A stretch of 64,000 nt of DNA from Abditibacterium sp. Its GTDB lineage: Bacteria > Armatimonadota > Abditibacteriia > Abditibacteriales > Abditibacteriaceae. Below the pieces are notes generated by a model. It had not been told where the DNA came from. It searched no databases and saw only the letters and a program-made list of their open reading frames with translations. Within the stretch, counting starts at the first letter, position 1. Each line of letters opens with the position of its first letter. The position numbers and the translations under genes were made by a program. The DNA lies in contig CBDASK010000003.1 in NCBI GenBank assembly GCA_965199495.1, positions 2,400,001 through 2,464,000 on the forward strand, in the 5' to 3' direction. This document shows positions 1,986 to 64,000 of this stretch, piece after piece.

Positions 1986-2027
1986 AAAACAAAAGAGCCA
2001 CGGCAAACGCCGTGGCTCTTTTGTTTT
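1986..2027. terminator. bidirectional rho-independent terminator whose stem is an inverted pair of GCCGTGGCT
   Basis: AAAACAAAAGAGCCACGGC-aaac-GCCGTGGCTCTTTTGTTTT. Confidence 0.85.
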
Positions 2028-2063
2028 TGATTTTGACCGTGAAAACGTCATAATCGAATGGTT

Positions 2064-2187
2064 TAGGAGTTACGCAAGGCACCCGTAGAGACACCGACTT
2101 GTCGTGTCTAAAACGTGAGATTCACCACAAATTTACGTTTTAGACACGACAAGTCGGTGTCTCTACGGGTGCCTTGCGTAACTCCTA
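2064..2187. repeat. GTAG-REP doublet (REPIN-like), GTAGAGAC family
   Basis: 53-bp perfect arms containing GTAGAGACACCGACTTGTCGTGTCT; same core at 58695-58793. Confidence 0.9.
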
Positions 2188-2218
2188 TATTTTATGAACC
2201 AATCGTGAAAACACAACG

Positions 2219-2254
2219 CAAAGCGGCCCGCGATATTTATCGCGGGCCGCTTTG
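2219..2254. terminator. rho-independent terminator
   Basis: CAAAGCGGCCCGCGAT...ATCGCGGGCCGCTTTG just downstream of the large minus-strand gene. Confidence 0.75.
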
Positions 2255-2269
2255 TTACGTCGCCAGACC

Positions 2270-5200
2270 TTACGAATTGCCAGCCGACGGCGCCGTGGCT
2301 GCTGGCGCGGGCCGCGACAAACTGGCTTGCGCCGAACTCGCGTTTGAACCCGCCGTTTCGACGGCGCCGATGTCTTTGCGCGCGCCTTGCGGACGAGCCA
2401 CGCCGCGTTGGTCGGTCGTGGCGCTCGTGTTGCCCGCGTCAATCGCCGGACTGCCGGTTTGCGGCAAACGCGTTTGTGTCGGGCCACCGTTGTTGGCGAG
2501 GGCGCCCAACTTCGGATCGAGCGGCGAGCCAACAGTGCCGCTTTTGTCTCCGGTGCGCGCGCCGTTGCCCGGCGAAACGCCGATCAGGTTATAACCCTGC
2601 GAATTGAGTGCGCCGCTCACGTCAACGCCGTTGCTGCCGCTGTTGAGCGCGAGGATGGAATTTAGGCTGTTGACCGTGCCGCCCACGCTCAAAAGTCCGC
2701 CGCCCGCGCTGCTGGCGCTGTTGCTCGCGACCGTCGCGCTATCGAGCGAGACCGTGCCGCCATCGTTATAGATGCCGCCGCCGCCCTGATCGCTGCCGCC
2801 GCCGTTGGCCGCGTTGCCGCTCAGCGTGCTGTTGCGCACGGCCAGAGAACCGCCTGCCGAATTCCACAGGCCGCCGCCCTCTTGCTGCGCCGTATTGTTG
2901 GACGCGGTGCTGTTGAGAAAGAACACGCGTCCGGCGCCCGAAGTGTGCAAACCGCCGCCGTTAATGCCCGCCGTGTTGCCATTGAGCGTGGCGTTTTGAA
3001 TCGTGGCTTGCCCCGCGTTTTCGATGGCGCCCCCGGCGCGCGCGGTGCTGTTGCTTCTCAAACTGCCGCCATTGATAACCATCGTGCCGCTATTCAAAAT
3101 CGCGCCGCCGTTGCCCAATCCGTTGGTCGCGGTGTTGCCGGTAAAGTTCGTGTTGACGATGTTGGCATTGCCTTTGTTGAACAAGCCACCGCCGCCCAAA
3201 CCGGGCGCATTGCCCAGCGTCGAGTTGCCCATGATGTTGGCGTTGCGCACCGTGAGCGCGCCGCCATCGTTGTATAAACCGCCGCCGCCTGCCTCTTCGC
3301 CCGTGCCCGCCGCCGCGTTGCCGCGAATGGTTGTGCCATCCACAACTAAAGTGCCCGTGCCCGAATTCCACAGCCCGCCGCCTTCGGCCAGAGCGTTGTT
3401 GCCCGTCACTTCGCCGCGCACAAGGGTGACATCGCCCGCACCCGAAATATGCAAACCGCCGCCGTTGCCGGGGCCATTGCCCGCGCCGGTCGAGTTTTGA
3501 ACGAGTTGGGTTTCGGTCAAGCTAATTTTGCCGCCCAGAGTTTCGATGGCGCCGCCCGCGCGATTGGAACGGTTATTTTGCAGTAGGCTCGCGCTCACTG
3601 AAACGGTGCCGCCTTTGTTAAAGAGCGCGCCGCCGCTGCCCGAACCGACGCTCGCCTGATTGTTCGCCAGATTTACGCCACGCACATTGACCATGCCGCC
3701 ATTATTGAAGATGCCGCCGCCGCCTTTTTCGGCGGTCGCGCCCAAAGAAACGTTGTCGCGCAAACTCGAATTTTGCACCGTGAGCGTGGCGCCCGCCTGA
3801 TTCCACAGCGCGCCGCCCTCGCTGGCGGCGGTGTTTTCCAGGAAAGTGCCGCCCGTGATAAACACGGTATCGGCGCCCGAAGTGTGCAGGGCGCCGCCGT
3901 TTCCGGGCGCCGCGCTCGCCGAGTTCGCCCGGAAACCGCTGTTTTCGAGCGAAACGCCGCCCGTCCCGACGGTTTCGATGGCGCCGCCCGCGCGCTGGGC
4001 CGTATTGCGGTTGAACGTGCTGGACTTGACTTGCAGCGCGCCGCCCTTGTTGAGAATCGCGCCGCCCGAACCCGCCGCGCCCGTGGCTGTGTTGGTGTCT
4101 AAAATCGCGTTACGAACCGTAATGGAACCGCCGTCGCCATAAATCGCGCCGCCGCCATTATCGGCATCGGCGCCCGCCGCCGTATTGTTGCTAAACGTCG
4201 TTCCGTCCACAATGAGCGTGCCGCCGCTCGAATTCCACAAACCGCCGCCTTCGCTGGCCGCCGTATTGCCGTTGACGCCGCCGCCTATCACGGTCGTGAT
4301 GCCCGCGCCCGTCACATGAAATGCGCCGCCGTTGCCGGGCGCCGCGCTGCCGTTTGGCCCGGCCACATTTTCAGAAAGCGTGCTGTTAGTTATGGTATTG
4401 GTCGTCGCGCCATTGCTTTCGATGGCGCCGCCCGCGCGATTGGCCCTGTTGCCGCTCGCCCTGCTGTTGGCGAATTCCAGACGCCCGCCGTTATTGAGAA
4501 TGCCGCCGCCGCTACCAGCCACGCCGGTCGCCTCGTTGCTGGACAACGTCGCATTACGCACGCTCAAAATGCCGCCGTCGCTATAAAGCGCGCCGCCACC
4601 GTTATCGGCAGCGTCGCCCGCCGCGACATTGTCGCTAAACGTCGTTCCATCCACGCGCATCACGCCGTCCGCCGAATTCCACAGGCCGCCGCCTTCGAGC
4701 GCCGCCGCGTTACCAGAAACGTTGCCGCCCGCCACGAAAACGTTGGCATTGCCTCCGGCGTGCAAAGCGCCGCCGTTACCGGGCGCGCCCATCGCGCCGC
4801 CCAATGCGCGATTGTTAGTGACTCCCACGTTGCTCAAAACCACGCGTCCGCCCACGGTTTCGATGGCGCCGCCCGCACGGTTGGCGATGTTATTGGTCAA
4901 CGAGCCACCGACAATATTGAGGCTGCCCTTATTCAGAATCGCGCCGCCACTTCCTGCCGTGCCGTTCGCCCGATTGCTTTGCAGCGTCGAATTGCGCACC
5001 GTCGTGGTGCCGCCATCGCTATAAATCGCGCCGCCGCCGTTATCGGCATCGGCGCCCAAAGCGTCATTGTTGATAAACGTCGAATCGGCCACGGTCAGCG
5101 CGCCAGTCGCCGAGTTCCACAAACCGCCGCCCTCGCCGCTCGCGCTGTTCTGGAGAATTTGGGTGTCCGAAATCGAAACGATGTCGGCGCCCGTCATGTG

Positions 5201-5947
5201 TAATGCGCCGCCATTGCCGGGCGCGGCGCCCGTGCTATTGCTCGCCATTTGTCCGCCCACGATGGTGACGCGCGCGCCATCGCGCGTTTCGATACCGCCG
5301 CCCGCGCGATTAGAACGGTTGTCGTTCAACGTGCTGTCGCGCAGTTCGAGCGACGAACCCGCCACGAAAATCGCGCCGCCCGAACCCAACGCGCCCGTCG
5401 CGGAATTTCTGACAAAAATCGAATCGCGCACCACGACAGGGCCGCTCGAATACAACGCGCCGCCACCGTTGGTCGCTGCCGCGCCCGTTGCGGTGTTGTC
5501 ATTGAAATCCACTTTTAACAAAGTCAGACGTCCTGAACCGTTGTTAATGCCACCACCATTCACTGCGTTGCCTCCAATGACAGTCAGATCGGAAATCACT
5601 ACCGTCGCCGCAGGAATATTGAACACGCGAACCGCATTATTACCGCTCACGGCCAAGTTACCCGGCCCACGCAACACGATATTGCTCAAATCAGGCAGCG
5701 CCGAAGCGAGGACAATTGTGCCGCTCACGCCCGTCGCATCAATGAAGTCGTCACCCGCAGCCGCGTTGGCATCGAGAATCGCCTGACGTAGCGACCCCGC
5801 GCCCGCATCGTCGGTGTTAGAAACGGTGAAAGTCGCCGCCCGCGCGTCCGAAGCCGTCAAACTCACAGCCAGACCGCACATCGTGAGGCACAATAAAGTG
5901 CCGGTGCGCCGCGAAGACGGACGCGCAACAGAATTTTTCAAGAACAT
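2270..5947 (-). CDS. large secreted beta-helix repeat protein (Pmp/CSLREA-like N-terminus, choice-of-anchor-Q-like C-terminus)
   Basis: signal peptide, ATFTVSNTDDAGAGSLRQAI, many GGA(I/L) repeats, LGALANNGGPTQT...SPAIDAG...DQRG...DIGAVE tail; start codon uncertain. Confidence 0.82.
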   Translation of the reverse strand: MFLKNSVARPSSRRTGTLLCLTMCGLAVSLTASDARAATFTVSNTDDAGAGSLRQAILDANAAAGDDFIDATGVSGTIVLASALPDLSNIVLRGPGNLAVSGNNAVRVFNIPAATVVISDLTVIGGNAVNGGGINNGSGRLTLLKVDFNDNTATGAAATNGGGALYSSGPVVVRDSIFVRNSATGALGSGGAIFVAGSSLELRDSTLNDNRSNRAGGGIETRDGARVTIVGGQMASNSTGAAPGNGGALHMTGADIVSISDTQILQNSASGEGGGLWNSATGALTVADSTFINNDALGADADNGGGAIYSDGGTTTVRNSTLQSNRANGTAGSGGAILNKGSLNIVGGSLTNNIANRAGGAIETVGGRVVLSNVGVTNNRALGGAMGAPGNGGALHAGGNANVFVAGGNVSGNAAALEGGGLWNSADGVMRVDGTTFSDNVAAGDAADNGGGALYSDGGILSVRNATLSSNEATGVAGSGGGILNNGGRLEFANSRASGNRANRAGGAIESNGATTNTITNSTLSENVAGPNGSAAPGNGGAFHVTGAGITTVIGGGVNGNTAASEGGGLWNSSGGTLIVDGTTFSNNTAAGADADNGGGAIYGDGGSITVRNAILDTNTATGAAGSGGAILNKGGALQVKSSTFNRNTAQRAGGAIETVGTGGVSLENSGFRANSASAAPGNGGALHTSGADTVFITGGTFLENTAASEGGALWNQAGATLTVQNSSLRDNVSLGATAEKGGGGIFNNGGMVNVRGVNLANNQASVGSGSGGALFNKGGTVSVSASLLQNNRSNRAGGAIETLGGKISLTETQLVQNSTGAGNGPGNGGGLHISGAGDVTLVRGEVTGNNALAEGGGLWNSGTGTLVVDGTTIRGNAAAGTGEEAGGGGLYNDGGALTVRNANIMGNSTLGNAPGLGGGGLFNKGNANIVNTNFTGNTATNGLGNGGAILNSGTMVINGGSLRSNSTARAGGAIENAGQATIQNATLNGNTAGINGGGLHTSGAGRVFFLNSTASNNTAQQEGGGLWNSAGGSLAVRNSTLSGNAANGGGSDQGGGGIYNDGGTVSLDSATVASNSASSAGGGLLSVGGTVNSLNSILALNSGSNGVDVSGALNSQGYNLIGVSPGNGARTGDKSGTVGSPLDPKLGALANNGGPTQTRLPQTGSPAIDAGNTSATTDQRGVARPQGARKDIGAVETAGSNASSAQASLSRPAPAATAPSAGNS

Positions 5948-6198
5948 AAAGGGGAGAGAAACCAAGCCCAAATAATCGTGAGCTTATCGAGACCGGCGAA
6001 GGTCGAGAAAGGACGGAGTTTCTGGAAAACTGAGAAATTCCACAGAAAATCGAAGTGCCCCCAGTGTAAGCGCAAAACGAGAAAAAATGTCATAATTGGA
6101 GCAAGAAAAAACCGCAAATAATCATCTATTTTGCGGTTCTTCTTGTCAAACGACGGTGCGACAAAACGGGTTATCTCGGAATTTTTTGTGCTTTGGTT

Positions 6199-6585
6199 TC
6201 ATTCATTTGTCTCGACGGCGTGCGCTTTCAAATCGTCCAGATTGACCCATTCGAGCGTGCTGATATGCGTCGCTTCCAAAACGACGGCGGGCGCAACACC
6301 CGCGTCAAACGCTTCCTGCCAGCGATTGGCGCACAAACACCATTGATCGCCCGGCACAAGGCCGGGAAAATCGTATTGCGGATGCGGCGTGCTTAAATCG
6401 TTGCCGCGACTTTGGGAAAACTCCAAAAACTCGGCGGTGACGCGGGCGCACACGGTATGCACGCCCATATCGCCCGGCCCGGTATCGCAGCAACCGTTGC
6501 GATAATAACCGGTCATCGGATCGAGCGAACACGATTGCAGCGGCTCGCCCAGAACGTTGCGCGCATTGGAAGAAGATTGTGACAT
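6199..6585 (-). CDS. DUF2237 family protein
   Basis: NVLGEPLQSCS.DPMTGYYRNGCC...GNDLSTP...FPGL.PGD.WCLCA.RW. Confidence 0.92.
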   Translation of the reverse strand: MSQSSSNARNVLGEPLQSCSLDPMTGYYRNGCCDTGPGDMGVHTVCARVTAEFLEFSQSRGNDLSTPHPQYDFPGLVPGDQWCLCANRWQEAFDAGVAPAVVLEATHISTLEWVNLDDLKAHAVETNE

Positions 6586-6626
6586 AGGGAATGTAAAGTT
6601 TGGAAGATTCGCGCCAACGATTTAAT

Positions 6627-6732
6627 TTGGCCACGAAAAGGCACAAAAGCAACAAAAGGTTTGGACGAACTTTCTTTATTTTTGGCGATGGCTTCCCAAC
6701 TTTTTGTTGCTTTTGTGCCTCTTCGTGGCCAA
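6627..6732. repeat. palindrome, CCACGAA/CACAAAA-type
   Basis: 31-bp arms (6627-6657 and 6702-6732), one mismatch. Confidence 0.88.
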
Positions 6733-6736
6733 CGAT

Positions 6737-7756
6737 TTATTGCTGAAACATCTGCGCCAATGGCTCGCGAATTTTCGCCCAACTCGCGGGCCACTGCGTG
6801 TAATCATCAACGGGCGCTTTGACCAGAAACCCGAAATCTTCGCCACCGCTTTTCCAATTCGCCGGTTTATCCAACGCGCGCAACGAAAACACGCCCGGCA
6901 TTCCGGCAACCAAATCGGCCTCGCCCTGTTTACTGACAATCGCGTCGAATAATTTGCGCGCGTTTTCGGGATTGGGCGCGCCCTTAACCAGAGCCACGGC
7001 GCCCGGCACGATGACGTTATCGGTTTGAGTTTTCGCCGCGAAAATCGGTTTGCCGCGTTTTTTCTGCCCCAGATAATCGTCGGTATCCGTCCAACCGAAC
7101 TGTAAATCGCCGTCAGCGACGGCGCGCGCGACATCGCCGTTGCCGGGCAAAATCCGAACTTTGGCCGCTTTGAGTTCACGATACCACATCAGTGTTCGGT
7201 TTGGTTCGCGCGCATAAAGCGCGGTGGCTTCATCGCTGGCGGTGCCAAATTGCGGGTTAGAGTGTGCGGTAGCGAGACCTTTGGGAATAAGAACCAAACG
7301 ATCAAGAGAGAAGGCAGTGTCGGAGCTATTTGCCACCAAAACGCGCGCCCGCGTGCCGACGCCCGCCCAACCGACGCCGCGAAAACGCGGCGCCAAATCG
7401 CGCGCGGCGGGCGAATCGTAGGGTTCCAATAAGCCGTCTTGGCTCAGTAGCAGCGTTTGCAACAGCGCCGAAGTCCATAAAACATCGGCGCGCGGACGCG
7501 ATTTTTCGGCCCGAATCCGTGTCGTCAAACCGGCGGTTTTGGTGGACTCGGTATCGAACAACGGCACGATGTCCAAACCGGTGCGCTTTTTCAATTTTTC
7601 GATTAAAGGTTTAGCGAACACATCGTCAATCGAACAATAAAGCACGACGCGCTTAGATTTGGGCACATCGGCGGTTTGAGTTGGCGTCGAAGTTTTGGAA
7701 GCGCAACCGCTTAGCAATGATGCGCCAAGCAAACAGGGAATCACGAAAATCTTCAT
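6737..7756 (-). CDS. ABC transporter substrate-binding lipoprotein (Fe3+/AfuA-like)
   Basis: LSGC lipobox; RIRAEKSRPRADVLW; GWTDTDD. Confidence 0.8.
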   Translation of the reverse strand: MKIFVIPCLLGASLLSGCASKTSTPTQTADVPKSKRVVLYCSIDDVFAKPLIEKLKKRTGLDIVPLFDTESTKTAGLTTRIRAEKSRPRADVLWTSALLQTLLLSQDGLLEPYDSPAARDLAPRFRGVGWAGVGTRARVLVANSSDTAFSLDRLVLIPKGLATAHSNPQFGTASDEATALYAREPNRTLMWYRELKAAKVRILPGNGDVARAVADGDLQFGWTDTDDYLGQKKRGKPIFAAKTQTDNVIVPGAVALVKGAPNPENARKLFDAIVSKQGEADLVAGMPGVFSLRALDKPANWKSGGEDFGFLVKAPVDDYTQWPASWAKIREPLAQMFQQ

Positions 7757-7771
7757 GGTGATTTCAGTTTC

Positions 7772-8170
7772 TCACGCCAAACATTCGCGATAAATCGCGG
7801 GCACGCGCGTGGGTTTCCACTCGCGATTCAAAAACGCGATGGTCTGGCGCGCGCGTAAAATCGTGACGCCATCGCAGTCGCGCGTGATTTCGTGCGACAC
7901 GGTCGCCGTGGCTCCCTTCCATTCGCTGACCCAGGTTTTTAAAGTCAGCGCCTCTTCGTGGCGCGCGAAATTGAGATAATCGGCCTCGACGCGCCGCACA
8001 ATCGCCATAATTCCGTTTTCGCGCCACGTTTTCTCGACCGGCAAACCGGCGGCATGGAGCAACGCATAGCGCCCGCGTTCGAGAAATTCGAGATAGCGCG
8101 TGTTGGAAACCACACCGCCGAAATCGGTCTCGAAGGCGTGAACCAAAATGGGAAGAGTGACGGAATTCAT
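7772..8170 (-). CDS. acyl-CoA thioesterase (YbgC/4HBT family)
   Basis: ETDFGGVVSNTRYLEFLERGR; ATGA overlap with the valS stop. Confidence 0.88.
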   Translation of the reverse strand: MNSVTLPILVHAFETDFGGVVSNTRYLEFLERGRYALLHAAGLPVEKTWRENGIMAIVRRVEADYLNFARHEEALTLKTWVSEWKGATATVSHEITRDCDGVTILRARQTIAFLNREWKPTRVPAIYRECLA

Positions 8171-10908: not shown

Positions 10909-10959
10909 AATGTGCGCTAAAAGTCTAACGGGCGCGCGCATTTGGTTTCGTGCCTAAAA

Positions 10960-11070
10960 ATCACGTTTTGTGGACACGTCGAATTATCATGCACAGATAG
11001 CGCGCATTTCGTGATCACGTTTTGTGGACGTGGGCACAAAACCGCGCTTTCTTACTCACGTTTTATGAGC
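10960..11070. repeat. short direct repeats upstream of valS
   Basis: ATCACGTTTTGTGGAC at 10960 and 11014; degenerate TCACGTTTTATG at 11056. Confidence 0.7.
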
Positions 11071-11093
11071 AATAATCTCAATTATGATTGCTT

Positions 11094-11217
11094 AAAAAAC
11101 GTCACGCAGAGACCGCAAAGCCGCAGAGAAATCAAAAATTAAAGATTAAGAGAATAGAGACTCATTCAAAAATATTCGTTCTCTCTGCGCACCAACGTTC
11201 TCTGCGTGACGTTTTTT
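11094..11217. repeat. palindrome, CGCAGAG-type
   Basis: AAAAAACGTCACGCAGAGA ... TCTCTGCGTGACGTTTTTT outer arms with degenerate inner arms. Confidence 0.8.
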
Positions 11218-11298
11218 CTATCGAAATCGCGTTATCAAGTCAAAGATTTCTGCGCTATCAAATGTTGTTTTGAGCCGGGTATTCTCTTGAGCGAGAAC

Positions 11299-12108: not shown

Positions 12109-12131
12109 AGTGAAAGCGAGGCGAAAAACGC

Positions 12132-12164
12132 AAAAACCCGCCGCACTTTTGGAAGCGCGGCGGG
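12132..12164 (-). terminator. rho-independent terminator after the ferredoxins
   Basis: CCCGCCGC...GCGGCGGG stem with an A-run on the left (U-tract on the minus strand). Confidence 0.6.
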
Positions 12165-12193
12165 CCTTGAGGTTTCGTCTTCAATGTGACGAA

Positions 12194-12439: not shown

Positions 12440-12561
12440 AGTTTAGTTTTCCTTTTCGCTTGATTTTTCAGCGAACTAACACTTACCAATATAAAACCAA
12501 ACGCGCGCTTTGTCCAAAAGTAATTCTCAATGGATGTTATTGAGTTTTCGGATGATGAGAT

Positions 12562-12801: not shown

Positions 12802-12863
12802 AACTCTTTAAATTTTGCGCTATGGGCACTGTAAAGTCCAAGACGCAACTTCAATTCGGGCGA

Positions 12864-54851: not shown

Positions 54852-54933
54852 GAAAGGATGAAGGCTGAAGGCTAAAGGATGAAAAATACGCATCCCCAAT
54901 TTTAGCCTTTAGCCTTTATCCTTCAGCCTTTCC
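54851..54933. repeat. inverted heptamer tandem repeats (AAGGCTG/AAGGATG)
   Basis: about four 7-mers facing about four complementary 7-mers. Confidence 0.8.
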
Positions 54934-54935
54934 CT

Positions 54936-56993: not shown

Positions 56994-57005
56994 GGTTTAG
57001 AGGGT

Positions 57006-57187
57006 GTTTACGTTTTCCCTCACCCTCACCCTCACCCTAACCCTCTCCCGGAGGGAGAAGGAACTACGCATCGGATAACTATAAGTCGCTTCAACTGACT
57101 TACAAAGTCAGTTCAACGCACTTCTATCTTCCGATGCGTAGTTCCTTCTCCCTCCGGGAGAGGGTTAGGGTGAGGGAAAACGTAAAC
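57006..57187. repeat. CCCTCACCC-family palindrome
   Basis: 58-bp right arm; left arm carries two extra CCCTCA units; inner hairpin AACTGACTT..AAGTCAGTT. Confidence 0.92.
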
Positions 57188-57261
57188 GCTTGCCTTTCCG
57201 AAACACGCCGTTAATCGCATTTGCATCGGACAATTCGCGCGCCGCCGCGCACTTTACCTTT

Positions 57262-58692
57262 ATGTCCCAACGCAAACTTATCGTGATTGGCAACGGCATG
57301 GCCGGAGCGCGCTTGCTCGCCGAATTATTGGCGCGCGGCGGTAGCGAGAAATTCCACATCGTCGTTTTCGGCGACGAACCCGGCGGCGCCTACAACCGCA
57401 TTTTGCTGTCCGATGTTTTGAACGGCTCCAAGGCGCCCGATTCGATTACGACGCATCCGCTCGATTGGTATCAGCGCGGCAACATTGACCTGCGCGCCGG
57501 ACAACGCATCGCGCACATTGACCGCCAAAACCAAACCGTTACCACGGAAAATGGCGTCATTGAATCGTTTGATGAACTGGTTATCGCCACCGGTTCGCGC
57601 TCTCTGGTGCCGCCGCTCGACGGTTTGACCGACGCAAACGGCGAACGCATCAAAGGCGTGTTCGCGATGCGCACACTGGGCGATTGCCACAACATCGCCG
57701 GTTACGCGACCAAAGCAGCGCGCGCCGTCGTGATTGGCGGCGGATTACTCGGCCTCGAAGCCGCGCGTGGCCTGATGCAGCACGGCGCGCAGGTGCATCT
57801 CGTTCATCGTTCGAGCTGTCTGATGAGCGCGCAATTGGATCAAAGCGCCAGCGATTTGCTGCAAAAGCAAATCGAGCAAATGAGCATTTCGGTTCATTTG
57901 AACAAACAAACGGTGGGCGTGATCGGCGATGAGCAAGTGACCGGTTTGACTTTCGCCGATGGCAGCGAATTGAGTTGCGATATGATCGTTTTCGCGTGCG
58001 GCATCGTGCCCAACGTCGAGTTGGCGCGCGAAGCCGGTTTGCCGGTCGAGCGCGCGATTGTAGTTGACGACGGTTTGCAGGTCGCGCCGCATATTTACGC
58101 GGTCGGCGAATGCGCGCAGCATCGCGGGCAAACCTACGGTTTGGTCGCGCCGGTCTGGGAACAGGCGCGCGTTTTGGCGCAACGTTTGAGCGGGCAAAGT
58201 CCCGACGCGATCTATTGTGGCTCCAAAACTTCGACGCGCCTGAAAGTCATGGGCGTCGAACTGGCTTCGATGGGCGAGGCGCGCGAATGCGAGGGCGACG
58301 AAGTGATTCAATACGTCGAGGCGCGCAAAGGGCGTTACAAAAAATTGATTATCCGCGAGGGACGTCTGGCGGGCGCGGTTCTGCTGGGCGACGCCAGCAA
58401 AGCCGCGATGTTGATGCAGATTTTCGAGAGCCAGATGGCATTGCCCGACGAACGCGCGAGTCTGTTTTTCGACATCGGCAAAGCCGCCCCCGCCGACGTG
58501 GCTGTTCTGGCTGACGACGCGACAGTTTGCAATTGCAACGCGGTCAAAGCGGGCACCATTCGTTGCGCCATTAAAGACGGCGCCGCCGATCTGCCCGCGC
58601 TGATGGCAGCCACGCGCGCGGGCACCGGTTGTGGTTCGTGCAAAGGTTTGGCGCGCGAGTTTCTGGCGTGCGGGGCGAAAGTCGCGGCGTAA
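57262..58692 (+). CDS. NAD(P)H/FAD oxidoreductase with a BFD-like [2Fe-2S] domain (NirB N-terminal half; likely electron-transfer subunit)
   Basis: IGNGMAG, YNRILLS, GGGLLGLEAA, GECA, CNC...GTGCGSC; no siroheme domain. Confidence 0.85.
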   Translation: MSQRKLIVIGNGMAGARLLAELLARGGSEKFHIVVFGDEPGGAYNRILLSDVLNGSKAPDSITTHPLDWYQRGNIDLRAGQRIAHIDRQNQTVTTENGVIESFDELVIATGSRSLVPPLDGLTDANGERIKGVFAMRTLGDCHNIAGYATKAARAVVIGGGLLGLEAARGLMQHGAQVHLVHRSSCLMSAQLDQSASDLLQKQIEQMSISVHLNKQTVGVIGDEQVTGLTFADGSELSCDMIVFACGIVPNVELAREAGLPVERAIVVDDGLQVAPHIYAVGECAQHRGQTYGLVAPVWEQARVLAQRLSGQSPDAIYCGSKTSTRLKVMGVELASMGEARECEGDEVIQYVEARKGRYKKLIIREGRLAGAVLLGDASKAAMLMQIFESQMALPDERASLFFDIGKAAPADVAVLADDATVCNCNAVKAGTIRCAIKDGAADLPALMAATRAGTGCGSCKGLAREFLACGAKVAA

Positions 58693-58694
58693 AC

Positions 58695-58793
58695 CGTAGA
58701 GACACCGACTTGTCGTGTCTAATAAGATTGAAATTGCCTTCGCGTTGAAGCAATTCTAACCTTTATTAGACACGACAAGTCGGTGTCTCTACG
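58695..58793. repeat. GTAG-REP doublet, GTAGAGAC family
   Basis: CGTAGAGACACCGACTTGTCGTGTCTAA, identical to the core of the 2064 element. Confidence 0.9.
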
Positions 58794-58841
58794 AGAATTC
58801 TGATTATTGAGCCGCACCGCCGTTGCTACACTAAGTCGCCC

Positions 58842-60293
58842 GTGAGCAACCCGACAATGCAAGATTTTTCCAACACGACCGCCGCCGTCATCGGACTGGC
58901 GCGCGCGGGCGCGCCCGCCGCCCGATTTTTACTGGAGCGCGGCGCTCGCGTTATCGGCTACGATTCCAAAGCGCACGCCGAACTATCCGACGAAGCGCGC
59001 CAACTCGAACGCGATGGCGTGCAAATTTACGCAGGCGAGCATAATTACGAAAACATCGAAACCGCCGATTTAATTATTTTGTCGCCCGGTTTGAAAGTTC
59101 ATTACGAACCGTTGCAAAGCCTCATCGCTCAAGCCGAAGCGCGCGGCGCCGAAGTCATCGGCGAATTGGAATTGGCCTCGCGCTTTTGTCCGTGCCCGAT
59201 GATCGGCGTGACCGGCACCAAAGGCAAAAGCACAACAGTAAAACTCATCACCGAAATGCTGCGCGCCTGCGGCGTGGCTGCTTTCAGCGCGGGCAATACC
59301 GGAACGCCGCTCATCGAAATGTTGCCGCAACTCACGCCCGATTCGTGGGCCGTCGTCGAAGTTTCGAGTTTTCAACTCGAAAAAGCGCCGACGTTCAAAC
59401 CAAAAATCGCGGTTTTGTTATCGCTTTTGGAAGATCATCAAGATTATCATCCGACGCTGGAGCAGTATTGGAAAACCAAGTTGAAATTATTCGCTAATCA
59501 AGATGAAAATGATATTGCGATTTATAATGTCGATGATGTTCGTGTGTTTGAAGAGTGGAAGAAAAGTAATGGAAAATATTTCACTTATGCAAATGCAAAA
59601 AACGAAGACGCAGTTGATATTTTTCCTCAAGAAGCTTTAGTGGCTCCACATACGAAATATTCACTTCACCTCGAATTAGATACATCTAAAGGAGCGATTC
59701 CTATCATCGAACAAGAAAAAGTGCCGCTTAAAGGAATTCATAACCTTTCCAATATTGCTGCTGCAATTGGTGCTGTTGGAAGTGTGCTAAATCTAACGAA
59801 TAAAGACGTTCAAGATTATTGCTCACAAATCGCGGATGCGATTCGCAATTTCCAAGCGTTGCCCCATCGGCTCGAAGTTGTCGCGCGCAAAGACGGCATC
59901 ACTTACGTCAACGATTCGCAGTCCACGATTCCCGATGCTTCGATTGCTGCGTTAAAAAGTTTTCCCGCGCCTGTGACTTTATTGTTGGGCGGCAAAGCGA
60001 AAATCGAGGCCGATTCTTATCGCGCTTTGATGGATGCAGTGCGCGAGTCGGGCGCGAAAATCGGGTTATTTGGCGAGGCGGCGGCGATGTTGGAAGAAGT
60101 GGCGCGCGCGCAAAATGTGAGAGATTTGCAAATAAATCGGGCCAACACGTTGGCAGAGGCGCTCGAATCTGCGAAAATAGAGGCGTCGCCCGGCGAAACT
60201 ATTGTTTTGAGTCCCGCTTGCGCTTCGTTCGATCAGTTCAAATCCTACGAAGATCGCGGCCAAACCTTTCGCGCGCTGGTTGATGCCCTCTAA
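58842..60293 (+). CDS. murD: UDP-N-acetylmuramoyl-L-alanine--D-glutamate ligase
   Basis: GLARAG, GVTGTKGKST, EVSSFQLE, HRLE, NDS, SPACASFDQFKSYEDRG; start may be 58857. Confidence 0.95.
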   Translation: MSNPTMQDFSNTTAAVIGLARAGAPAARFLLERGARVIGYDSKAHAELSDEARQLERDGVQIYAGEHNYENIETADLIILSPGLKVHYEPLQSLIAQAEARGAEVIGELELASRFCPCPMIGVTGTKGKSTTVKLITEMLRACGVAAFSAGNTGTPLIEMLPQLTPDSWAVVEVSSFQLEKAPTFKPKIAVLLSLLEDHQDYHPTLEQYWKTKLKLFANQDENDIAIYNVDDVRVFEEWKKSNGKYFTYANAKNEDAVDIFPQEALVAPHTKYSLHLELDTSKGAIPIIEQEKVPLKGIHNLSNIAAAIGAVGSVLNLTNKDVQDYCSQIADAIRNFQALPHRLEVVARKDGITYVNDSQSTIPDASIAALKSFPAPVTLLLGGKAKIEADSYRALMDAVRESGAKIGLFGEAAAMLEEVARAQNVRDLQINRANTLAEALESAKIEASPGETIVLSPACASFDQFKSYEDRGQTFRALVDAL

Positions 60294-60363
60294 ATTATTG
60301 CCCACTTTTTCCCTCGTTTTTACGCGAATGGAAAAACAATTGAATAGCCGTTCTGGAGAACCA

Positions 60364-61788
60364 ATGTCGCCCGAATCACAGCCCCAAACTCCACCCCTTT
60401 CTCCGCCCGCCACCGATGTTGACTTTCACGCGCTCCGCCAAAACCGGATGCGCGAAGCTCACGCACAGGCCGCCGTGCCCCTGCCCGAATTGAAAATCGG
60501 CGAAGTCTCGACTAATGAAGTCGCGCCCGAAAACGATCCGTTCGTGCCCGAAACGCCCGAAGCGCGGCGGCGCGCGGCCAAACTGCAAATCGAAAACGGC
60601 GCGCCCAAACTTTCGCCCGACGAATCGAAACAGTTCGAGCGCCTCATCAAATCGCGGCGCCTCGCGCCCTGCCATTGGGGCTTGCTCGTCGCTGCCTTGA
60701 TTTTGACGGCGCTCTCGATTCCGCTCGTCTATTCGGCTTCGACGGCGATTGCTTTGGATCAGCATCATGGCGATACCAACTTCTTTTTGTGGCGCCAGAT
60801 CGGTTACTCGATTGTCGGTTTGGGCGTCATGCTGTTCGCCTCGCGCATCGCGCCCGAAAAGTTGCGCGCTTTCGCGTGGGGACTTTACGCGTTCGCCATT
60901 TTGGGTCTGTTAGCGACCAAGTTTTCGCCGCTGGGTTATTCGATGGGCAACGTCGAACGCTGGGTCAAACTGGGGCCGCTGACGTTTCAGTTTTCCGAAT
61001 TGGCCAAAATCGCCGTCATTGGTATTATGGCCGATTTCTGGAGCCGGGCCGCGCGCCAATCGCAGAAGTCCATGACGCCGTGGCTGGTCACGGCGGCGCT
61101 GGCGGGCATCCCGATTGTTTTGACGTTTATTCAGCCGCACTTATCGGCGACGCTGGTTTTGCTGTTGTTGCCTTTGGCCGTCGCGTTTTTCGCGGGCGCG
61201 CCGACCAAACATTTCATCACGATTTTTGTGCCGTTTCTGGTTGTCATCGCTGCAACGATTGGCCTGTGCAAAACGCACAAAATGCCGTTTATGGCGCCCT
61301 ATCAACAAGACCGCATCGCCGCCAAGTTCGGCGGCGACGACGCCAGTGACGACCGGGGCAACAACTATCAATCGTTGCAGGGCCAGCGCGCCATTATGCG
61401 CGGCGGTCTCACCGGCGTGGGATTGGGCGCGTCGTTGTATAAACAGGGCCATCTGCCCGCGCCGCACACCGACTTTATTTTCGCGGTCATCGCCGAAGAG
61501 ACCGGCGCGTGGGGCGTGCTTTTGCTGCTCACGCTTTATGGCGCCATCGTGTTCTTCTGCTTTCAGATTGGGCACAGTGCCAGCAACGGTTTCGATTCGC
61601 TGCTCTGCGTTGGCATCGGCACGCTGTGGGCGTTGCAGGTTTTGGGCAATATCGCCGTCGTTTCGGGCGTGATGCCCGTCACCGGTATGCCGCTACCGAT
61701 TCTCACGTTCGGCGGTTCGGGATTGTGGTGCGCGCTGTTTGGTCTGGGCTTAGTTTTGGCCGTCTCGCGCGCACAGGGCGAAAGTTAA
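60364..61788 (+). CDS. ftsW: FtsW/RodA/SpoVE SEDS family protein
   Basis: RWVKLGPLTFQFSELAK, LPAPHTDFIFAVIAEETG, PVTGMPLP; follows murD; start uncertain. Confidence 0.88.
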   Translation: MSPESQPQTPPLSPPATDVDFHALRQNRMREAHAQAAVPLPELKIGEVSTNEVAPENDPFVPETPEARRRAAKLQIENGAPKLSPDESKQFERLIKSRRLAPCHWGLLVAALILTALSIPLVYSASTAIALDQHHGDTNFFLWRQIGYSIVGLGVMLFASRIAPEKLRAFAWGLYAFAILGLLATKFSPLGYSMGNVERWVKLGPLTFQFSELAKIAVIGIMADFWSRAARQSQKSMTPWLVTAALAGIPIVLTFIQPHLSATLVLLLLPLAVAFFAGAPTKHFITIFVPFLVVIAATIGLCKTHKMPFMAPYQQDRIAAKFGGDDASDDRGNNYQSLQGQRAIMRGGLTGVGLGASLYKQGHLPAPHTDFIFAVIAEETGAWGVLLLLTLYGAIVFFCFQIGHSASNGFDSLLCVGIGTLWALQVLGNIAVVSGVMPVTGMPLPILTFGGSGLWCALFGLGLVLAVSRAQGES

Positions 61789-61887
61789 AAGCAAGGGACA
61801 AGTGACAAGTAGAAGGGAACAAGGGCGACGCAGGGAGCCGTTGCCGCAAACCTTGTCCCGTGTTCCCTGTCCCTTGTCACTTTTTAA
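61786..61887. repeat. degenerate inverted heptamer-type repeats (GGGACAA/GTGACAA)
   Basis: AGGGACAAGTGACAAG ... CTTGTCCC...CCCTTGTCACT. Confidence 0.6.
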
Positions 61888-61890
61888 ATT

Positions 61891-62892
61891 ATGTATTTCA
61901 TCGGCATTGACGGCGGCGGGAGCACGACGCGGGCGGTTGTAATCAACGAGCACCGCGAAGTTTTGGGGCGCGGCGAGTCCGGCCCATCGAGTCATTATGC
62001 GGTCGGCCCGGCGGTGGCAACCACGTCGTGTCAGGAGGCGGCGCAATTGGCGATTCAAAACGCGCGCGATATACACCCGGATTTTGACGCCGAACAGATC
62101 GCCGCGTGGGGATTTGGTCTGGCGGGCGTGCGCCGCGAAGCCGATCAGGAACTGATGAACGCGTTTCTCTCCGAGATTTGCGACGTGCCGTTTTTGCTCG
62201 ATACCGATGTCGTCGCGGCGCACGCGGGCGCCTTTGCGGGCGATCCGGGCATTGTTGTCTCGGCGGGCACAGGCGCCATCACGTTGGGCGCCGACGAGTA
62301 TGGCGAGCAGTTTTACGCCGACGGCTGGGGACCGCTGATGGGCGACGAAGGCGGCGGTTATTGGATCGGCGTTGAGGCGTTGCGCGCCGTTTGCCGTTCG
62401 CTCGATGGGCGCTCGCACGCCACTCAACTGACAGCGCCGATTTTCAAGATGCTCGGCGTGGCTGATGGCGGGCAGTTGGTGCAGTTCGTCTATTCGGAGG
62501 TCTGCACGCGCAACGACATCGCGCGACTCGCCGAAATCGTGTTCGAGCTGGCCGATGCGGGCGTGCCCGAAGCCGTGGACATTCGCGCGCGCGCCGCTTC
62601 GATGATGTCGCGCGGCGTGCGTAGCGTGGCGCGCGCACTCTTGCAGCGTCGCCGCGAACGCGCCATCGAAAACAATGAGGAAGATAGCCCGCCCCTTGAC
62701 ATGTTGGTGGCACTGCGCGGCGGCATCTTCGAGGACGATTTCATGCGCGCGACACTGGGTTTTTCCGCGACCGAAGCGATGGTCGAACTCAAGCGCGATT
62801 ACCTGCCGATCAACAGTTGGCGCGTCGTCAAACCGCAGCACGACGCGGCAGTTGGCGCCGCGATTTTAGCGCAATTGTTGGTGTGGAATTAA
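61891..62892 (+). CDS. BadF/BadG/BcrA/BcrD ATPase family sugar kinase (GlcNAc/MurNAc kinase-like)
   Basis: GIDGGGSTT, SAGTGAI, DGWGPLMGDEGGGYWIG. Confidence 0.88.
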   Translation: MYFIGIDGGGSTTRAVVINEHREVLGRGESGPSSHYAVGPAVATTSCQEAAQLAIQNARDIHPDFDAEQIAAWGFGLAGVRREADQELMNAFLSEICDVPFLLDTDVVAAHAGAFAGDPGIVVSAGTGAITLGADEYGEQFYADGWGPLMGDEGGGYWIGVEALRAVCRSLDGRSHATQLTAPIFKMLGVADGGQLVQFVYSEVCTRNDIARLAEIVFELADAGVPEAVDIRARAASMMSRGVRSVARALLQRRRERAIENNEEDSPPLDMLVALRGGIFEDDFMRATLGFSATEAMVELKRDYLPINSWRVVKPQHDAAVGAAILAQLLVWN

Positions 62893-62907
62893 CTTTTAAA
62901 AATTCAA

Positions 62908-63072
62908 TTAGCCACCAAGGACACCAAGAAAACACCAAGAAAACACCAAGGGGCACCAAGAAGGGAGAAAAGAATGAAATGTAGAAGAACTATTTGTGGT
63001 CTTGCTTCTGCGTTTAAATTCTTCTCCCTTCTTGGTGCCCCTTGGTGTTTTTTTGGTGTCCTTGGTGGCTAA
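62908..63072. repeat. palindrome built from CACCAAG units
   Basis: TTAGCCACCAAGGACACCAAG... / ...CTTGGTGTCCTTGGTGGCTAA; left arm has one extra 11-bp unit. Confidence 0.9.
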
Positions 63073-63092
63073 AAACGTCAAACTAAAAATCA

Positions 63093-64000
63093 ATGATTTA
63101 TTTTGACAACGCCGCCACGACGCCGCTTCATCCTGCCGCTCTCGAAGCGATGATGCCTTATTTACAGGCGAAGTTCGGCAATCCTTCGTCGCTGCATCAT
63201 CTGGGCAAAGAGGCCCAGTTTGGCGTCGAGTGGGCGCGCGAAAGCGTCGCCGGTTTGCTGGGCGCGCGGCCCGCCGAAATTATCTTCAATTCGGGCGCCA
63301 CCGAAGGCAATAACCACGCCATCAAAGGCATCGCCGCGCATCTGTCGAGCAAAGGTCGCCACATCGTCACCACACAAATCGAACACGATGCGGTTGTGCA
63401 TCCGCTCGGCCAACTCGAAAAATTGGGCTACGAAGTGACGTATGTCGGCGTCAATTCGGGCGGCATTGTCAATTTCGATGAACTGCAAAACGCGCTGCGT
63501 CCCGACACGATTTTGGTTTCGGTGATGCACGCCAACAACGAGTTGGGAACGCTGCAACCGATTTCGCAAATCGGCGCCCTGTGCCGCGAGCGCGAGATAC
63601 TCTTTCACAGCGACGCCTGCCAAACCGTCGGCCACATTCCGGTTGATGTCAAAGCTCTGAACGTGGATTTGCTGACGTTATCGGGCCACAAGTTCTACGG
63701 CGCCAAAGGCGCGGGCGCGCTTTATGTGCGGCGCGGCGTGCGCTTGGAAACTTTGGTTGACGGCGGCCATCAACAAAAAGGTCGTCGCGCCGGAACCGAA
63801 AACGTGCCCGCAATTATCGCGATGGGCGCGGCTTGTCAAATCGCTGTTGCCGCGATGCAAAGCGGCGACGAAGCCGCCGTGGCTGCATTGCGCGAACGGC
63901 TCATCGAAGGCGTATTGAACGGCGATATGGGCGCGCATCTCAACGGCGACCGCAACAATCGCGTGCCGGGCATCGCCAATTTTTCGTTCGAGGGCATCGA
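63093..64000 (+). CDS. iscS: cysteine desulfurase (IscS/NifS type), 3'-partial
   Basis: translated by hand: MIYFDNAATTP, FGNPSSLH, SGATEGNN, HANNELG, HSDACQ, SGHKFYGAKG. Confidence 0.92.
   Translation, partial: MIYFDNAATTPLHPAALEAMMPYLQAKFGNPSSLHHLGKEAQFGVEWARESVAGLLGARPAEIIFNSGATEGNNHAIKGIAAHLSSKGRHIVTTQIEHDAVVHPLGQLEKLGYEVTYVGVNSGGIVNFDELQNALRPDTILVSVMHANNELGTLQPISQIGALCREREILFHSDACQTVGHIPVDVKALNVDLLTLSGHKFYGAKGAGALYVRRGVRLETLVDGGHQQKGRRAGTENVPAIIAMGAACQIAVAAMQSGDEAAVAALRERLIEGVLNGDMGAHLNGDRNNRVPGIANFSFEGI

Follow-up and report, generated by a model that had tools for sequence, protein, structure and literature searches.

The DUS of the Neisseriaceae is bound by the minor pilin ComP, and the USS is the corresponding word of the Pasteurellaceae. 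Background for a comparison with these two systems is provided by 10.1101/2025.10.24.684340 and PMC3630211, the first of which presents the sequence marking of self DNA as established for only two proteobacterial families, and reports about half of the sites in Neisseriaceae and Pasteurellaceae to lie in terminators. The HIP1 word of cyanobacteria is described in one study as still unexplained after decades, with a 15- to 300-fold excess and with sites conserved within and between ORFs, which that study argues to be the result of selection (PMC5861425). Here we report a comparably strong case in a soil-type bacterium of the unrelated and barely studied phylum Abditibacteriota, seen in a window of 64,000 nucleotides (the whole stretch of DNA that was analysed) and in the genome from which it derives, hereafter G000. 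The word is genome-wide, strand-symmetric, substitution-born, conserved and limited to a small clade.

Abundance and placement of the word

The full 11-base word, CG[C/G/A]CGTGGCTG (CGVCGTGGCTG), occurs in 2,112 copies in G000, a density of about 0.45 per kb. Its 11-mer CGCCGTGGCTG is present 1,051 times, where Markov models predict 11.7 copies (order 3) and 93.7 copies (order 5), an excess of about 90-fold over the order-3 model (50- to 90-fold if quoted as a range), and the word ranks first among the 10-, 11- and 12-mers of the genome. The logo is asymmetric, not palindromic, and does not contain GTAG. Single-base variants are scarce at all positions save the third and the last base, and the third is tolerant, with counts of 690 for C, 357 for G, 276 for A and 27 for T. 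An earlier sequence-only reading of the window had claimed at least 23 copies of the 9-mer GCCGTGGCT where about one was expected; there are 25 (15 on the plus strand and 10 on the minus strand), and shuffles that preserve dinucleotides give a mean of 0.73 and reach at least 25 in 0 of 100 cases. All 23 coordinates that it listed are correct, two sites having been overlooked at 31119(+) and 61077(+). The 13 extended sites and roughly 30 additional CGTGGCT cores that it described are real in kind and differ in number: 14 window sites extend to GCCGTGGCTGC, and 36 further cores are spread over both strands of positions 1..64000 beyond the 25 copies of the 9-mer, which brings the cores to 61 (31 plus, 30 minus), with 29 matching CG[ACG]CGTGGCTG.

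The enrichment is not confined to the window, as 1,504 copies of the 9-mer are found on the 4.72-Mb chromosome (C3). The absence of strand bias claimed from the window holds genome-wide, with 772 forward and 732 reverse copies; the strands are equal across 12 of 12 bins, without replichore bias, and the strand ratio does not flip on either side of the GC-skew extremes (0.17 and 1.91 Mb). Copies are evenly distributed, with near-Poisson spacing, and 40-kb windows of low density lie at 0.44-0.52, 1.12-1.24 and 4.20-4.28 Mb. With regard to acquired DNA, GCCGTGGCT is absent from both extra contigs (C1 and C2), which together span 89 kb and hold a single full word where chromosomal density predicts about 40. 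In these genomes, native and foreign DNA can be told apart by the word.

About 91% of the 9-mer sites lie in or at genes and about 9% between them, and the intergenic sites show no bias to gene 3' ends. Among 421 intergenic cores, 39 are paired, and there are 18 intergenic inverted pairs, eight of them with T/A runs. Some inverted pairs are terminator-like hairpins, including one in the window at 1986..2027 (+), an intergenic structure formed by two inverted copies of the word (at 1996 on the minus and 2009 on the plus strand), one in each arm, with a 19-pair stem, a loop of 4 and a T-rich tail, and lying between an A run and a T run. Single coding sites in G000 are without a hairpin (-12.5 versus -12.7 kcal/mol, p = 0.53).

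Within coding sequences, the 11-mer is found 483 times in sense and 470 times in antisense orientation. Nulls that preserve amino acids, codons and codon pairs do not remove this enrichment: synonymous permutation within genes gives 9.3 sense and 10.6 antisense copies, and the corresponding numbers under a codon-pair Markov null are 27 and 21. For the sense 9-mer, 729 copies compare with 47 when protein sequence and codon usage are kept and with 122 under the codon-pair null. Between genes, the perfect 12-mer is present in 67 copies against 0 for a reversed control, and relative to the supply of near-matches, perfect copies make up 67 of 149 intergenic and 623 of 1,767 coding cases, so that the two compartments are similarly enriched. 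The word is a DNA-level feature, not a codon-level one. Given that sense and antisense copies are about equally frequent and that the strands are symmetric, the reader is unlikely to be one coupled to replication or transcription.

GCT and GCA, which had been noted as uncommon from the window, are rare alanine codons in the genome as well (10.4% and 6.2%, respectively), and Ala-Val-Ala is nevertheless spelled GCC-GTG-GCT, that is, GCCGTGGCT, in 626 of 1,538 tripeptides (41%) against 18.6 expected. Two frames, Ala-Val-Ala and Ala-Thr-Ala, hold 82% of the genic 9-mer sites. One word rewrites two fifths of the Ala-Val-Ala and Ala-Thr-Ala codings and visibly shifts peptide content, with 385 AVAA against 163 of its mirror AAVA, and 365 AATA against 142 of its mirror ATAA. 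Protein reshaping of this sort has been reported for USS.

Reading frames in the window were assigned on our own gene calls, and comprise 12 sites in sense as Ala-Val-Ala and 6 in antisense as Ala-Thr-Ala. The claim of at least four frames is borne out, since Ser-His-Gly and Arg-Arg-Gly-Cys were also found, together with Pro-Trp-Leu and Gln-Pro-Arg. In the first part of the window, the 9-mer lies at 2292..2300 (+), antisense in the gene 2270-5971(-) as Ala-Thr-Ala; at 6992..7000 (-), sense in a solute-binding protein gene, 6737-7756(-), as Ala-Val-Ala; and at 12058..12066 (-), sense at codon 16 of the gene 11299-12108(-), again as Ala-Val-Ala. A LysR-type regulator gene, 12888-13826(+), contains the 9-mer at 13170..13178 (+) in sense as Ala-Val-Ala, at 13389..13397 (-) in antisense as Ser-His-Gly, and at 13599..13607 (+) in sense as Ala-Val-Ala-Ala, and is followed by a sense copy at 14851..14859 (-) in a Pup-ligase-family gene, 14785-16287(-), also as Ala-Val-Ala-Ala. 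Sulfatase genes carry antisense copies at 18141..18149 (+), codon 16 of 16328-18190(-), Ala-Ala-Thr-Ala; at 22559..22567 (+), in 22324-24126(-), Ala-Thr-Ala; and at 28352..28360 (+), codon 15 of 26449-28398(-); and sense copies at 21981..21989 (-), in 19953-22211(-), and at 37985..37993 (-), codon 25 of 35984-38062(-). The copy at 31119..31127 (+) is antisense in the gene 30820-33039(-) and read as Gln-Pro-Arg, that at 42957..42965 (+) is sense in a small ORF, 42807-43151(+), which is a weak gene call, and that at 46488..46496 (+) is antisense in an AcrB-family transporter gene, 44859-48011(-), as Ser-His-Gly. An NMT1-like binding protein gene, 48525-49850(+), has both an antisense copy at 48644..48652 (-), Ala-Ala-Thr-Ala, and a sense copy at 49422..49430 (+), Ala-Val-Ala. 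Toward the end of the window, sense copies lie at 56815..56823 (+) in a molybdopterin oxidoreductase gene, 54936-56993(+), as Arg-Arg-Gly-Cys; at 61077..61085 (+) in an FtsW/RodA gene, 60280-61788(+), as Pro-Trp-Leu; and at 63876..63884 (+) in a gene that continues past the window end, as Ala-Val-Ala-Ala. The frequent placement in signal peptides proposed from the window turned out to be weak: 5 of 23 genic window sites fall within the first 40 codons, and genome-wide 227 of 1,918 do so, where their share of gene length predicts 204.

Origin and upkeep of sites among relatives

The word is carried by 3 of the 13 genomes of the genus, and by 3 of the 41 relatives examined; relatives of similar composition are without it, and the core is missing in six outgroups at 7 of 7 alignable sites. 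G000 and a second genome, G011, have the same form of the word, while the third, G004, keeps the core CGTGGCTG with different flanks, the shared sites having been remodelled in place. The valyl-tRNA synthetase gene 8167-10941(-) illustrates how a site arises. Its copy at 10195..10203 (-) was born of synonymous GTC>GTG and GCG/GCC>GCT changes relative to five relatives (GTC GCC to GTG GCT in the alignment), and its other copy, at 8647..8655 (-), read as Ala-Val-Ala-Ala, is common to L002 and missing from L001 and the outgroups. In the neighboring gene 7772-8170(-), the antisense Ala-Thr-Ala copy at 7905..7913 (+) is present in L001 and missing from L002 and three outgroups. New copies come from point substitution, not from insertion, as non-shared sites involve 131 substitutions versus 6 indels in the comparison with G011, and 217 versus 22 in the comparison with G004.

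Once present, the sites are retained above background. Between G000 and G011, 66.9% of coding cores and 80% of intergenic cores (16/20) are retained, compared with 42.0% and 36.2%, respectively, of other 7-mers. Across 429 windows of 500 columns, the two genomes share no stretch of at least 97% identity, which gives no indication that they exchanged DNA recently. The recent origin of the word allows gene-by-gene comparison of sister species that have it with others that lack it; this makes its reader findable, by phyletic profiling or pull-down, and makes the long-standing choice between drive and selection testable.

In G004, the core lies inside a REP/REPIN-type hairpin repeat that begins with GTAG and has about 1,000 copies, its unit being GTAG-GACGTGGCTGGTGTC (the 16-mer of this unit occurs 1,092 times). 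The unit is intergenic in 63 of 91 copies in a 400-kb sample, and is found mostly as inverted doublets with 20-26-bp stems, random relative to gene orientation; at one locus, 7 units of 19 nt follow one another head to tail with the junction ..TTAC|GAC... Genic sites in G004 also drift toward the long unit, which looks akin to the usual REPs of relatives that lack the word. In the literature consulted (PMC3733652; PMC3116915), RAYT transposases are described as acting on GTAG-tagged REPs and on doublets of these. The embedding of the core in this repeat points to an intracellular DNA-processing system, and the long G004 form, being for the most part a REP-type repeat, may not be a receptor dialect. 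With the core captured in this way, two classes of bacterial repeat that have been treated as separate are linked. This REP-type connection goes beyond what the sequence-only reading had foreseen.

What might read or write the word

We tentatively regard the word CG[C/G/A]CGTGGCTG(C), on the strength of its sequence properties, as a candidate DNA-uptake-like self-recognition signal in the DUS/USS sense, present in double-stranded DNA and probably read by the natural-transformation machinery; we rank this reading first, at somewhat less than an even chance. We infer that uptake, rather than an intracellular reader, would be the selecting agent. Most of the statistical hallmarks of DUS and USS that had suggested this comparison are indeed present, but the placement relative to terminators and intergenic regions is unlike theirs. 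G000 carries ComEC, a ComEA-like HHH_3 protein, DprA and secretins, along with a pilus cluster of PilB/PilT/PilC/PilD and four pilin-like genes. No ComP-type receptor was identified; the Pfam ComP_DUS model has no match in G000 but likewise has none in any control genome, so its silence in G000 carries no weight. All 13 genomes of the genus have ComEC, and orthologues of the pilus cluster occur in 5 of 5 genomes examined, including three that are word-free; since the machinery is also found in word-free relatives, no gene was found that tracks the presence of the word.

Under the uptake reading, a surface or periplasmic receptor of the type IV pilus/ComEA/ComEC route would prefer word-bearing fragments, and these would recombine into the chromosome more often. 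Mutations that complete near-matches would then be preferentially fixed (molecular drive), protein function would restrict where the word can arise, and many Ala-Val-Ala(-Ala) and Ala-Ala-Thr-Ala spots would be filled via mostly silent changes. Newly arrived DNA would be spared, and sites would stay intact between species that have the word in common. If the word is an uptake signal, it could open the way to developing genetic tools in Abditibacteriota.

An intracellular protein could instead recognise the word on the host chromosome, which would make it a HIP1-like chromosomal word, with selection for that function keeping thousands of copies; a nucleoid-associated or architectural factor could be the reader, or an orphan methyltransferase together with a downstream reader, and G000 has many DNA methyltransferase genes. 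The roughly 90-fold excess over the order-3 model, the even, near-Poisson spacing and the level of conservation (0.67-0.80 versus 0.36-0.42) are in line with such a word, and the mostly genic sites, with few in terminators, fit it better than they fit DUS/USS. We nonetheless consider it less likely than uptake, as the word is non-palindromic, unlike HIP1 and its methylase sites, and no gene, methyltransferase or other, was seen to be limited to the three word-bearing genomes, a weak negative given that orthology was judged by length and score. A word serving a chromosomal function would also be expected to be older and to reach beyond 3 of the 13 species in the genus. HIP1 is itself now tied to transformation and gene transfer in recent accounts (10.1101/2024.09.10.611283; PMC13756078), and the uptake and HIP1-like readings may therefore not exclude each other.

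Less probable still is that the word is written neutrally, by biased intracellular conversion possibly linked to REP and Y1 (HUH) elements, with no reader selecting the sites; biased mismatch repair could be the route, or short-patch copying from abundant repeats or single-stranded intermediates. The G004 repeat, with its many intergenic copies, its inverted doublets and 7-unit array resembling GTAG REPs, and the shift of genic sites toward the long unit, argues for this, as do the Y1 transposase genes, which 12 of 13 genomes carry. The REP families of G000, however, differ from the word. One of them, GTAGAGAC[AG]CCGA.., has 236 copies (GTAGAGAC itself has 294 sites, 81% intergenic), and GTAGGGGCTTGCCGCGCAAGCCC stands on both sides of a Y1 gene, whereas among the 6 Y1 loci of G000 and the 8 of G004 there is none that the word clearly flanks. 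The coding single sites of G000 are without a hairpin and arise by substitution, Vsr was not found in G000 or G011 at the family cut-off, and 11 bases are very short for homology-driven copying. Conservation above background, notably between genes, argues for maintenance over replenishment. The more specific proposal, that conversion coupled to REP/HUH-Y1 activity overwrites near-matches anywhere, genes included, appears quite improbable. If this proposal were true, the 'selfish' extragenic repeat of G004 and the genic word of G000 would be two faces of one process, and sequence would be homogenised across the genome by a mechanism that is new.

A polar signal, read by RecBCD/AddAB as Chi or by FtsK as KOPS, is very improbable and was rejected. 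Chi in E. coli is mostly inside genes and highly frequent, and the word, being G/T-rich, GC-rich, mostly genic and highly frequent, shares these traits. Polar signals are strongly skewed to the leading strand, though, whereas here the two strands carry equal numbers in each of the 12 chromosome bins, without strand or replichore skew; known Chi sites are also shorter than 11 bases and far less than 50- to 90-fold enriched. That the word is a by-product of amino-acid, codon or codon-pair usage in Ala-rich signal peptides and linkers, as its two Ala-rich frames and the sites in early codons of the window might suggest, has a negligible chance of being correct and was rejected by the shuffles, by the enrichment between genes, by the use of rare GCT in Ala-Val-Ala, by the want of a genome-wide excess in the first 40 codons, and by relatives of similar composition that are without the word.

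Comparison with described systems

With Chi and KOPS, the word has in common that they are frequent, G-rich and mostly genic, but it is longer, far more enriched and free of strand skew. Its likeness to the GTAG REP/REPIN-RAYT system is limited to the G004 unit, with its GTAG head, intergenic placement, inverted doublets and one array; in G000, 91% of the copies are intragenic, and the word there occurs singly, is without structure and arises by substitution, and the true REPs and the REP-flanked Y1 gene of G000 have other sequences. HIP1 (GCGATCGC) is likewise hyper-abundant, mostly genic, conserved above background and not explained by peptides or codons, although it is palindromic, has two orphan methylases and is phylum-wide, whereas the word described here is asymmetric and belongs to a small clade. 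From DUS and USS the word differs in its host phylum, in its roughly 9% intergenic share with few terminators, and in being present in 3 of 13 species of a genus in which all have competence genes. It resembles them in being a short non-palindromic word that recurs about once per 1-2 kb, equally on both strands and in genic as well as intergenic DNA, with preferred reading frames, scarcity in foreign DNA, competence genes in the genome, possible lineage variants around a kept core, and some inverted pairs that form terminator-like hairpins.

A word of the chromosome that spares foreign DNA

The word CG[C/G/A]CGTGGCTG is a recent, clade-limited, strand-symmetric word that arises by substitution, is maintained at the level of DNA and spares foreign DNA. 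The genome under study, G000 (4.81 Mb), is made up of a chromosome of 4.72 Mb with 55.7% G+C, on which the window spans C3:2400001-2464000, and a pair of small contigs, 24.7 and 64.6 kb long. The window holds 25 copies of the 9-mer GCCGTGGCT, 15 on the forward and 10 on the reverse strand, against 0.73 expected from dinucleotide-preserving shuffles, none of which (0 of 100) reached 25. The sequence-only reading had listed 23 of these copies, and an exact recount found all 23 coordinates correct, but those at 31119 and 61077 had been overlooked; the reading frames that it named were borne out on our own gene calls for the window. The extension GCCGTGGCTGC is present at 14 window sites and the CGTGGCT core at 61. 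Chromosome-wide, the 9-mer occurs 772 times on the forward and 732 times on the reverse strand, with no copy on either small contig, where one full word is found and about 40 would be expected.

The commonest 10-, 11- and 12-mers of the genome are CGCCGTGGCT, CGCCGTGGCTG and CGCCGTGGCTGC, respectively, and CGCCGTGGCTG is seen 1,051 times, compared with expectations of 11.7 (order-3 Markov model) and 93.7 (an order-5 model, which already takes in the hexamers of the word itself). A logo over 4,533 cores, combined with a one-mismatch scan, defines the shape as C-G-[C 690 / G 357 / A 276 / T 27]-C-G-T-G-G-C-T-G, with C as the next base by loose preference; at the remaining positions any one substitution occurs at most 54 times. 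There are 2,112 sites of CG[ACG]CGTGGCTG on the chromosome, or one per 2.2 kb. A limited literature search returned no description of the 8-mer CGTGGCTG as over-represented, and, among the results listed, no relevant report of competence or uptake sequences in Abditibacteri*. The chromosome is also very rich in alternating CpG, its commonest 8-mers being GCGCGCGC and CGCGCGCG (about 7,500 each, both strands) at 55.7% G+C.

Genes were called by a simple ORF-plus-codon-score procedure (3,533 genes, 84% coding), and all coding and intergenic figures depend on these calls. Within coding sequence the 9-mer is found 729 times in sense and 634 times in antisense, as opposed to 47 and 45 after synonymous codon permutation within genes; for the 11-mer the counts are 483 and 470, as opposed to 9.3 and 10.6. 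A null that keeps the protein sequence and the genome-wide codon-pair frequencies yields 27 sense and 21 antisense 11-mers, so that the enrichment persists under the amino-acid-, codon- and codon-pair-preserving shuffle named beforehand as a check (483 sense copies vs 9.3 and 27). Intergenic DNA (739 kb) has 67 copies of the perfect 12-mer and coding DNA (3.98 Mb) has 623, against 0 and 4 for the reversed control, and when scaled by the control's supply of two-mismatch near-matches the two compartments are alike, at 0.45 and 0.35. Taken together with the shuffles, this similarity indicates that the enrichment acts on DNA and is blind to coding. Intergenic DNA, 15.7% of the sequence, holds 9% of the 9-mer sites, the lower density there being a matter of composition.

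Protein sequence is also shifted by the word. Among sense 9-mers, 625 of 729 are read as GCC-GTG-GCT, and among antisense ones 507 of 634 as xGCC-ACG-GC, even as GCT is rare among the alanine codons (10.4%). As many as 626 of 1,538 Ala-Val-Ala tripeptides are written as GCCGTGGCT (18.6 expected) and 522 of 1,247 Ala-Thr-Ala tripeptides as GCCACGGCG (90 expected), and the proteome contains 385 AVAA against 163 of the mirror AAVA, and 365 AATA against 142 ATAA. The sites had been thought to favor signal peptides; however, the first 40 codons hold 227 of 1,918 sites compared with 204 expected, which is no real excess, and the idea was thus a local impression drawn from the sulfatase genes of the window. 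An artefact of codons, peptides or signal peptides has practically no probability left and is effectively excluded by the synonymous and codon-pair nulls, the intergenic enrichment, the use of rare GCT and the lack of excess in the first 40 codons.

The sulfatase genes, seven in number, lie at window positions 16328-38062 with a glutaminase-A-like glycoside hydrolase-type protein and two XylR/AraC-type regulators, in what looks like a sulfated-polysaccharide utilization locus; a DUF1559 N-methyl (pilin-like) protein at 38151-38930 accompanies this cluster. A reverse-strand gene at window positions 14785-16287 encodes a Pup-ligase family member of full length (PF03136, E 3e-148) in this Abditibacteriota genome.

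The two strands carry the word equally often in every one of 12 bins along the chromosome, with no replichore bias and no shift at the extremes of the GC skew, itself very weak on this chromosome. This excludes a polarity of the Chi or KOPS type, and such a signal, which would require skew, is very improbable and likewise effectively excluded. The near equality of sense and antisense 11-mers (483 and 470) speaks against a signal linked to RNA or transcription. The standard deviation of the counts in 40-kb steps is 6.9 (Poisson, 6.2), and the longest gap without a core is 9.4 kb (about 8.8 kb expected); seven low-density 40-kb windows are grouped at 0.44-0.52, 1.12-1.24 and 4.20-4.28 Mb. Within 60 nt, 168 core pairs are inverted and 30 direct, where about 127 of each would be expected. 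The direct repeats are thus four-fold below Poisson, for which deletion between direct repeats and frame constraints are two possibilities, and the inverted pairs show a peak at 8-16 nt spacing. Only 18 inverted pairs are intergenic, 8 of them with T or A runs, and the window pair at 1996/2009 forms a clean terminator-like hairpin.

Distribution among relatives and origin of sites

Among 41 genomes, 13 of them of the genus, high counts of CGCCGTGGCTG are confined to G000 (1,051 copies) and two relatives, G011 (839) and G004 (231); the remaining 38 have 0-47 copies, the level of the reversed control. At the relatives' valyl-tRNA synthetase (ValRS) loci, a gene 90% identical (L001) has the G000 form of the word, and one 86% identical (L002) has a different form. 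No alternative dialect or other hyper-abundant k-mer was found in 400-kb samples of G009 and G012, two of the ten word-free genomes of the genus. The G009 sample (G009:C1:1000001-1400000; loci L128-L147) contains GGGCCAACGCTTGACCCA and ACGAGGGACGTCCGCCATC, of 16-19 nt, 12-14 times in 400 kb, probably as parts of other dispersed repeats.

Alignment of the ValRS gene with five relatives shows the sites to have arisen in place, for example by GTC GCC becoming GTG GCT, with no indels. Alignments to G000 covered 390 kb from G011 and 400 kb from G004, and sites present in one genome only were explained by 131 substitutions and 6 indels for G011, and by 217 substitutions and 22 indels for G004. The ValRS alignment and this preponderance of substitutions rule out a small inserted mobile unit as the origin of the sites in G000. 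None of six outgroups shows the core at the seven sites near ValRS where alignment with more distant relatives was possible; three-way polarity in this region was limited by poor synteny, 10 of the 29 sites being alignable.

G011 retains a fraction of 0.669 of the coding cores of G000 (n=251) and 0.80 of the intergenic ones (16/20), compared with 0.420 and 0.362 for all other 7-mers and 0.425 for 7-mers of the same composition. Retention in G004 is 0.226, below the control of 0.32-0.35, and therefore many sites have been gained or lost since G004 split. None of 429 aligned windows, at a threshold of at least 97% identity, points to recent exchange between G000 and G011. Hidden hairpins at single coding sites were rejected, as folding energies do not differ from those of GC-matched controls (-12.5 vs -12.7 kcal/mol, p = 0.53).

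The form in G004 and its link to REP elements

The G004 form, with the logo T-A-G-G-A-CGTGGCT-G-G-T-G-T-C, is represented by GGACGTGGCTGGTGTC, which has 561 + 531 copies in G004, two in G000 and none in the rest of the genus. In contrast to the G000 word, it lies mainly between genes (in a 400-kb sample, 63 of 91 long-form sites are intergenic, 22 coding and 6 at boundaries), and 102 of 178 ACGTGGCTGGT sites stand in inverted doublets with stems of 20-26 bp and energies of -33 to -65 kcal/mol. The flanking genes of 49 doublets are tandem at 23, convergent at 12 and divergent at 11, with 3 doublets inside genes, in roughly random proportions. An array at L106:371-507 (G004:C3:360371-360507) comprises 7.2 copies of the 19-nt unit CGACACCAGCCACGTCTTA, seven of them head to tail, followed by one inverted arm, and its ..TTAC|GAC.. 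junctions resemble IS200/IS605-type target and cleavage tetranucleotides. The unit matches GTAG-tagged REPs/REPINs, which are described as having a GTAG head, inverted doublets and an extragenic spread (PMC3733652). Low-copy REPs of two word-free genomes, GTAG-GGACATGGCTTGCCGTGTCC in G012 and GTAG-GGACGCTGCTTGCCGCGTCC in G009, look like kin of the G004 unit, judging by resemblance. Sites of the G000 type also remain in G004, at 26 per 400 kb; of these, 23 are coding, and pairs are absent. Some intragenic G004 sites that match the long unit are orthologous to G000-type sites.

G000 has an ordinary, canonical GTAG-tagged REP family, GTAG-AGAC[AG]CCGA(c/t)TT(g/a)TCG(t/c)GTCT-AAAA, quite different in sequence from the word and unrelated to it; GTAGAGAC marks 294 sites, 238 of them intergenic (81%), and the fuller head GTAGAGAC[AG]CCGA is present at 236. 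A Y1 (IS200/RAYT-type) transposase gene at G000:C3:1873871-1874155 (region 1873450-1874500) has five copies of a second REP, GTAGGGGCTTGCCGCGCAAGCCC, on both sides, a textbook RAYT-REP arrangement. No RAYT flanked by the word was found: none of six Y1 loci in G000, and none clearly among eight in G004, has the word at its flanks. We conclude from these comparisons that the G000 word is not a REP, and that in G004 a REP family has acquired the core and multiplied it. This link may mean that the family hitch-hikes on the reader of the G000 word, or it may reflect an intracellular process common to the two.

Candidate readers and competing explanations

A DNA uptake sequence is the reading that we place first, tentatively and by analogy as regards uptake itself, because DUS is the known system that has all of these features by an understood route. 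Biased uptake and recombination would drive the word into the chromosome, while protein constraint would set where it can enter; the molecular-drive model for uptake sequences is reportedly that of Redfield and colleagues. Three points weaken the uptake reading. The terminator bias typical of DUS/USS (10.1101/2025.10.24.684340) is nearly absent in G000, where intergenic sites on the chromosome show no bias toward gene 3' ends on our own gene calls. The second is the REP connection in G004, and the third that no gene tracking the word was found among the candidates.

As to those candidates, G000 has ComEC, a ComEA-like HHH_3 protein, DprA and six or more secretin genes, as well as a PilB-PilT-PilC-PilD cluster with four pilin-like genes after it. 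Every one of the 13 genomes of the genus has ComEC, and orthologues of the pilus genes are present in each of the five genomes examined for them; the four pilins, all with orthologues in word-free genomes, were rejected as a clade-specific receptor. One of them, a 618-aa pilin-like protein (L195:13592-15448, equal to G000:C3:868592-870448), shares only 57% identity with the orthologue in G011 and 47% with the one in G004, next to a PilB with 97% and 91% identity. Its divergence does not track the word, which G000 and G011 share; it is a very fast-evolving, probably surface-exposed pilus component. A search with the ComP_DUS Pfam model gave zero hits, as it also did in the control genomes, and is therefore uninformative.

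A chromosomal word like HIP1, selected for an intracellular reader, takes second place and is possible, if on balance unlikely. No methyltransferase (C5, N4/N6 or N6) limited to G000, G011 and G004 is evident, with orthology judged by length and score alone; these enzymes are patchy or universal across genomes. Neutral conversion, possibly connected with REP/Y1 enzymes, is ranked third and seems improbable. Repair of the VSP type was rejected, as Vsr exceeds the family cut-off only in G004, on a small contig, with a sub-threshold 24.5 bits in G000 and no match in G011. In G004 the Vsr endonuclease gene adjoins a C5 DNA methyltransferase (G004:C5:1-2300; L082).

Hyper-abundant self words are a known kind. 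The present one adds a variant from a new phylum, has an unusual bias toward positions inside genes and is connected to REP elements.
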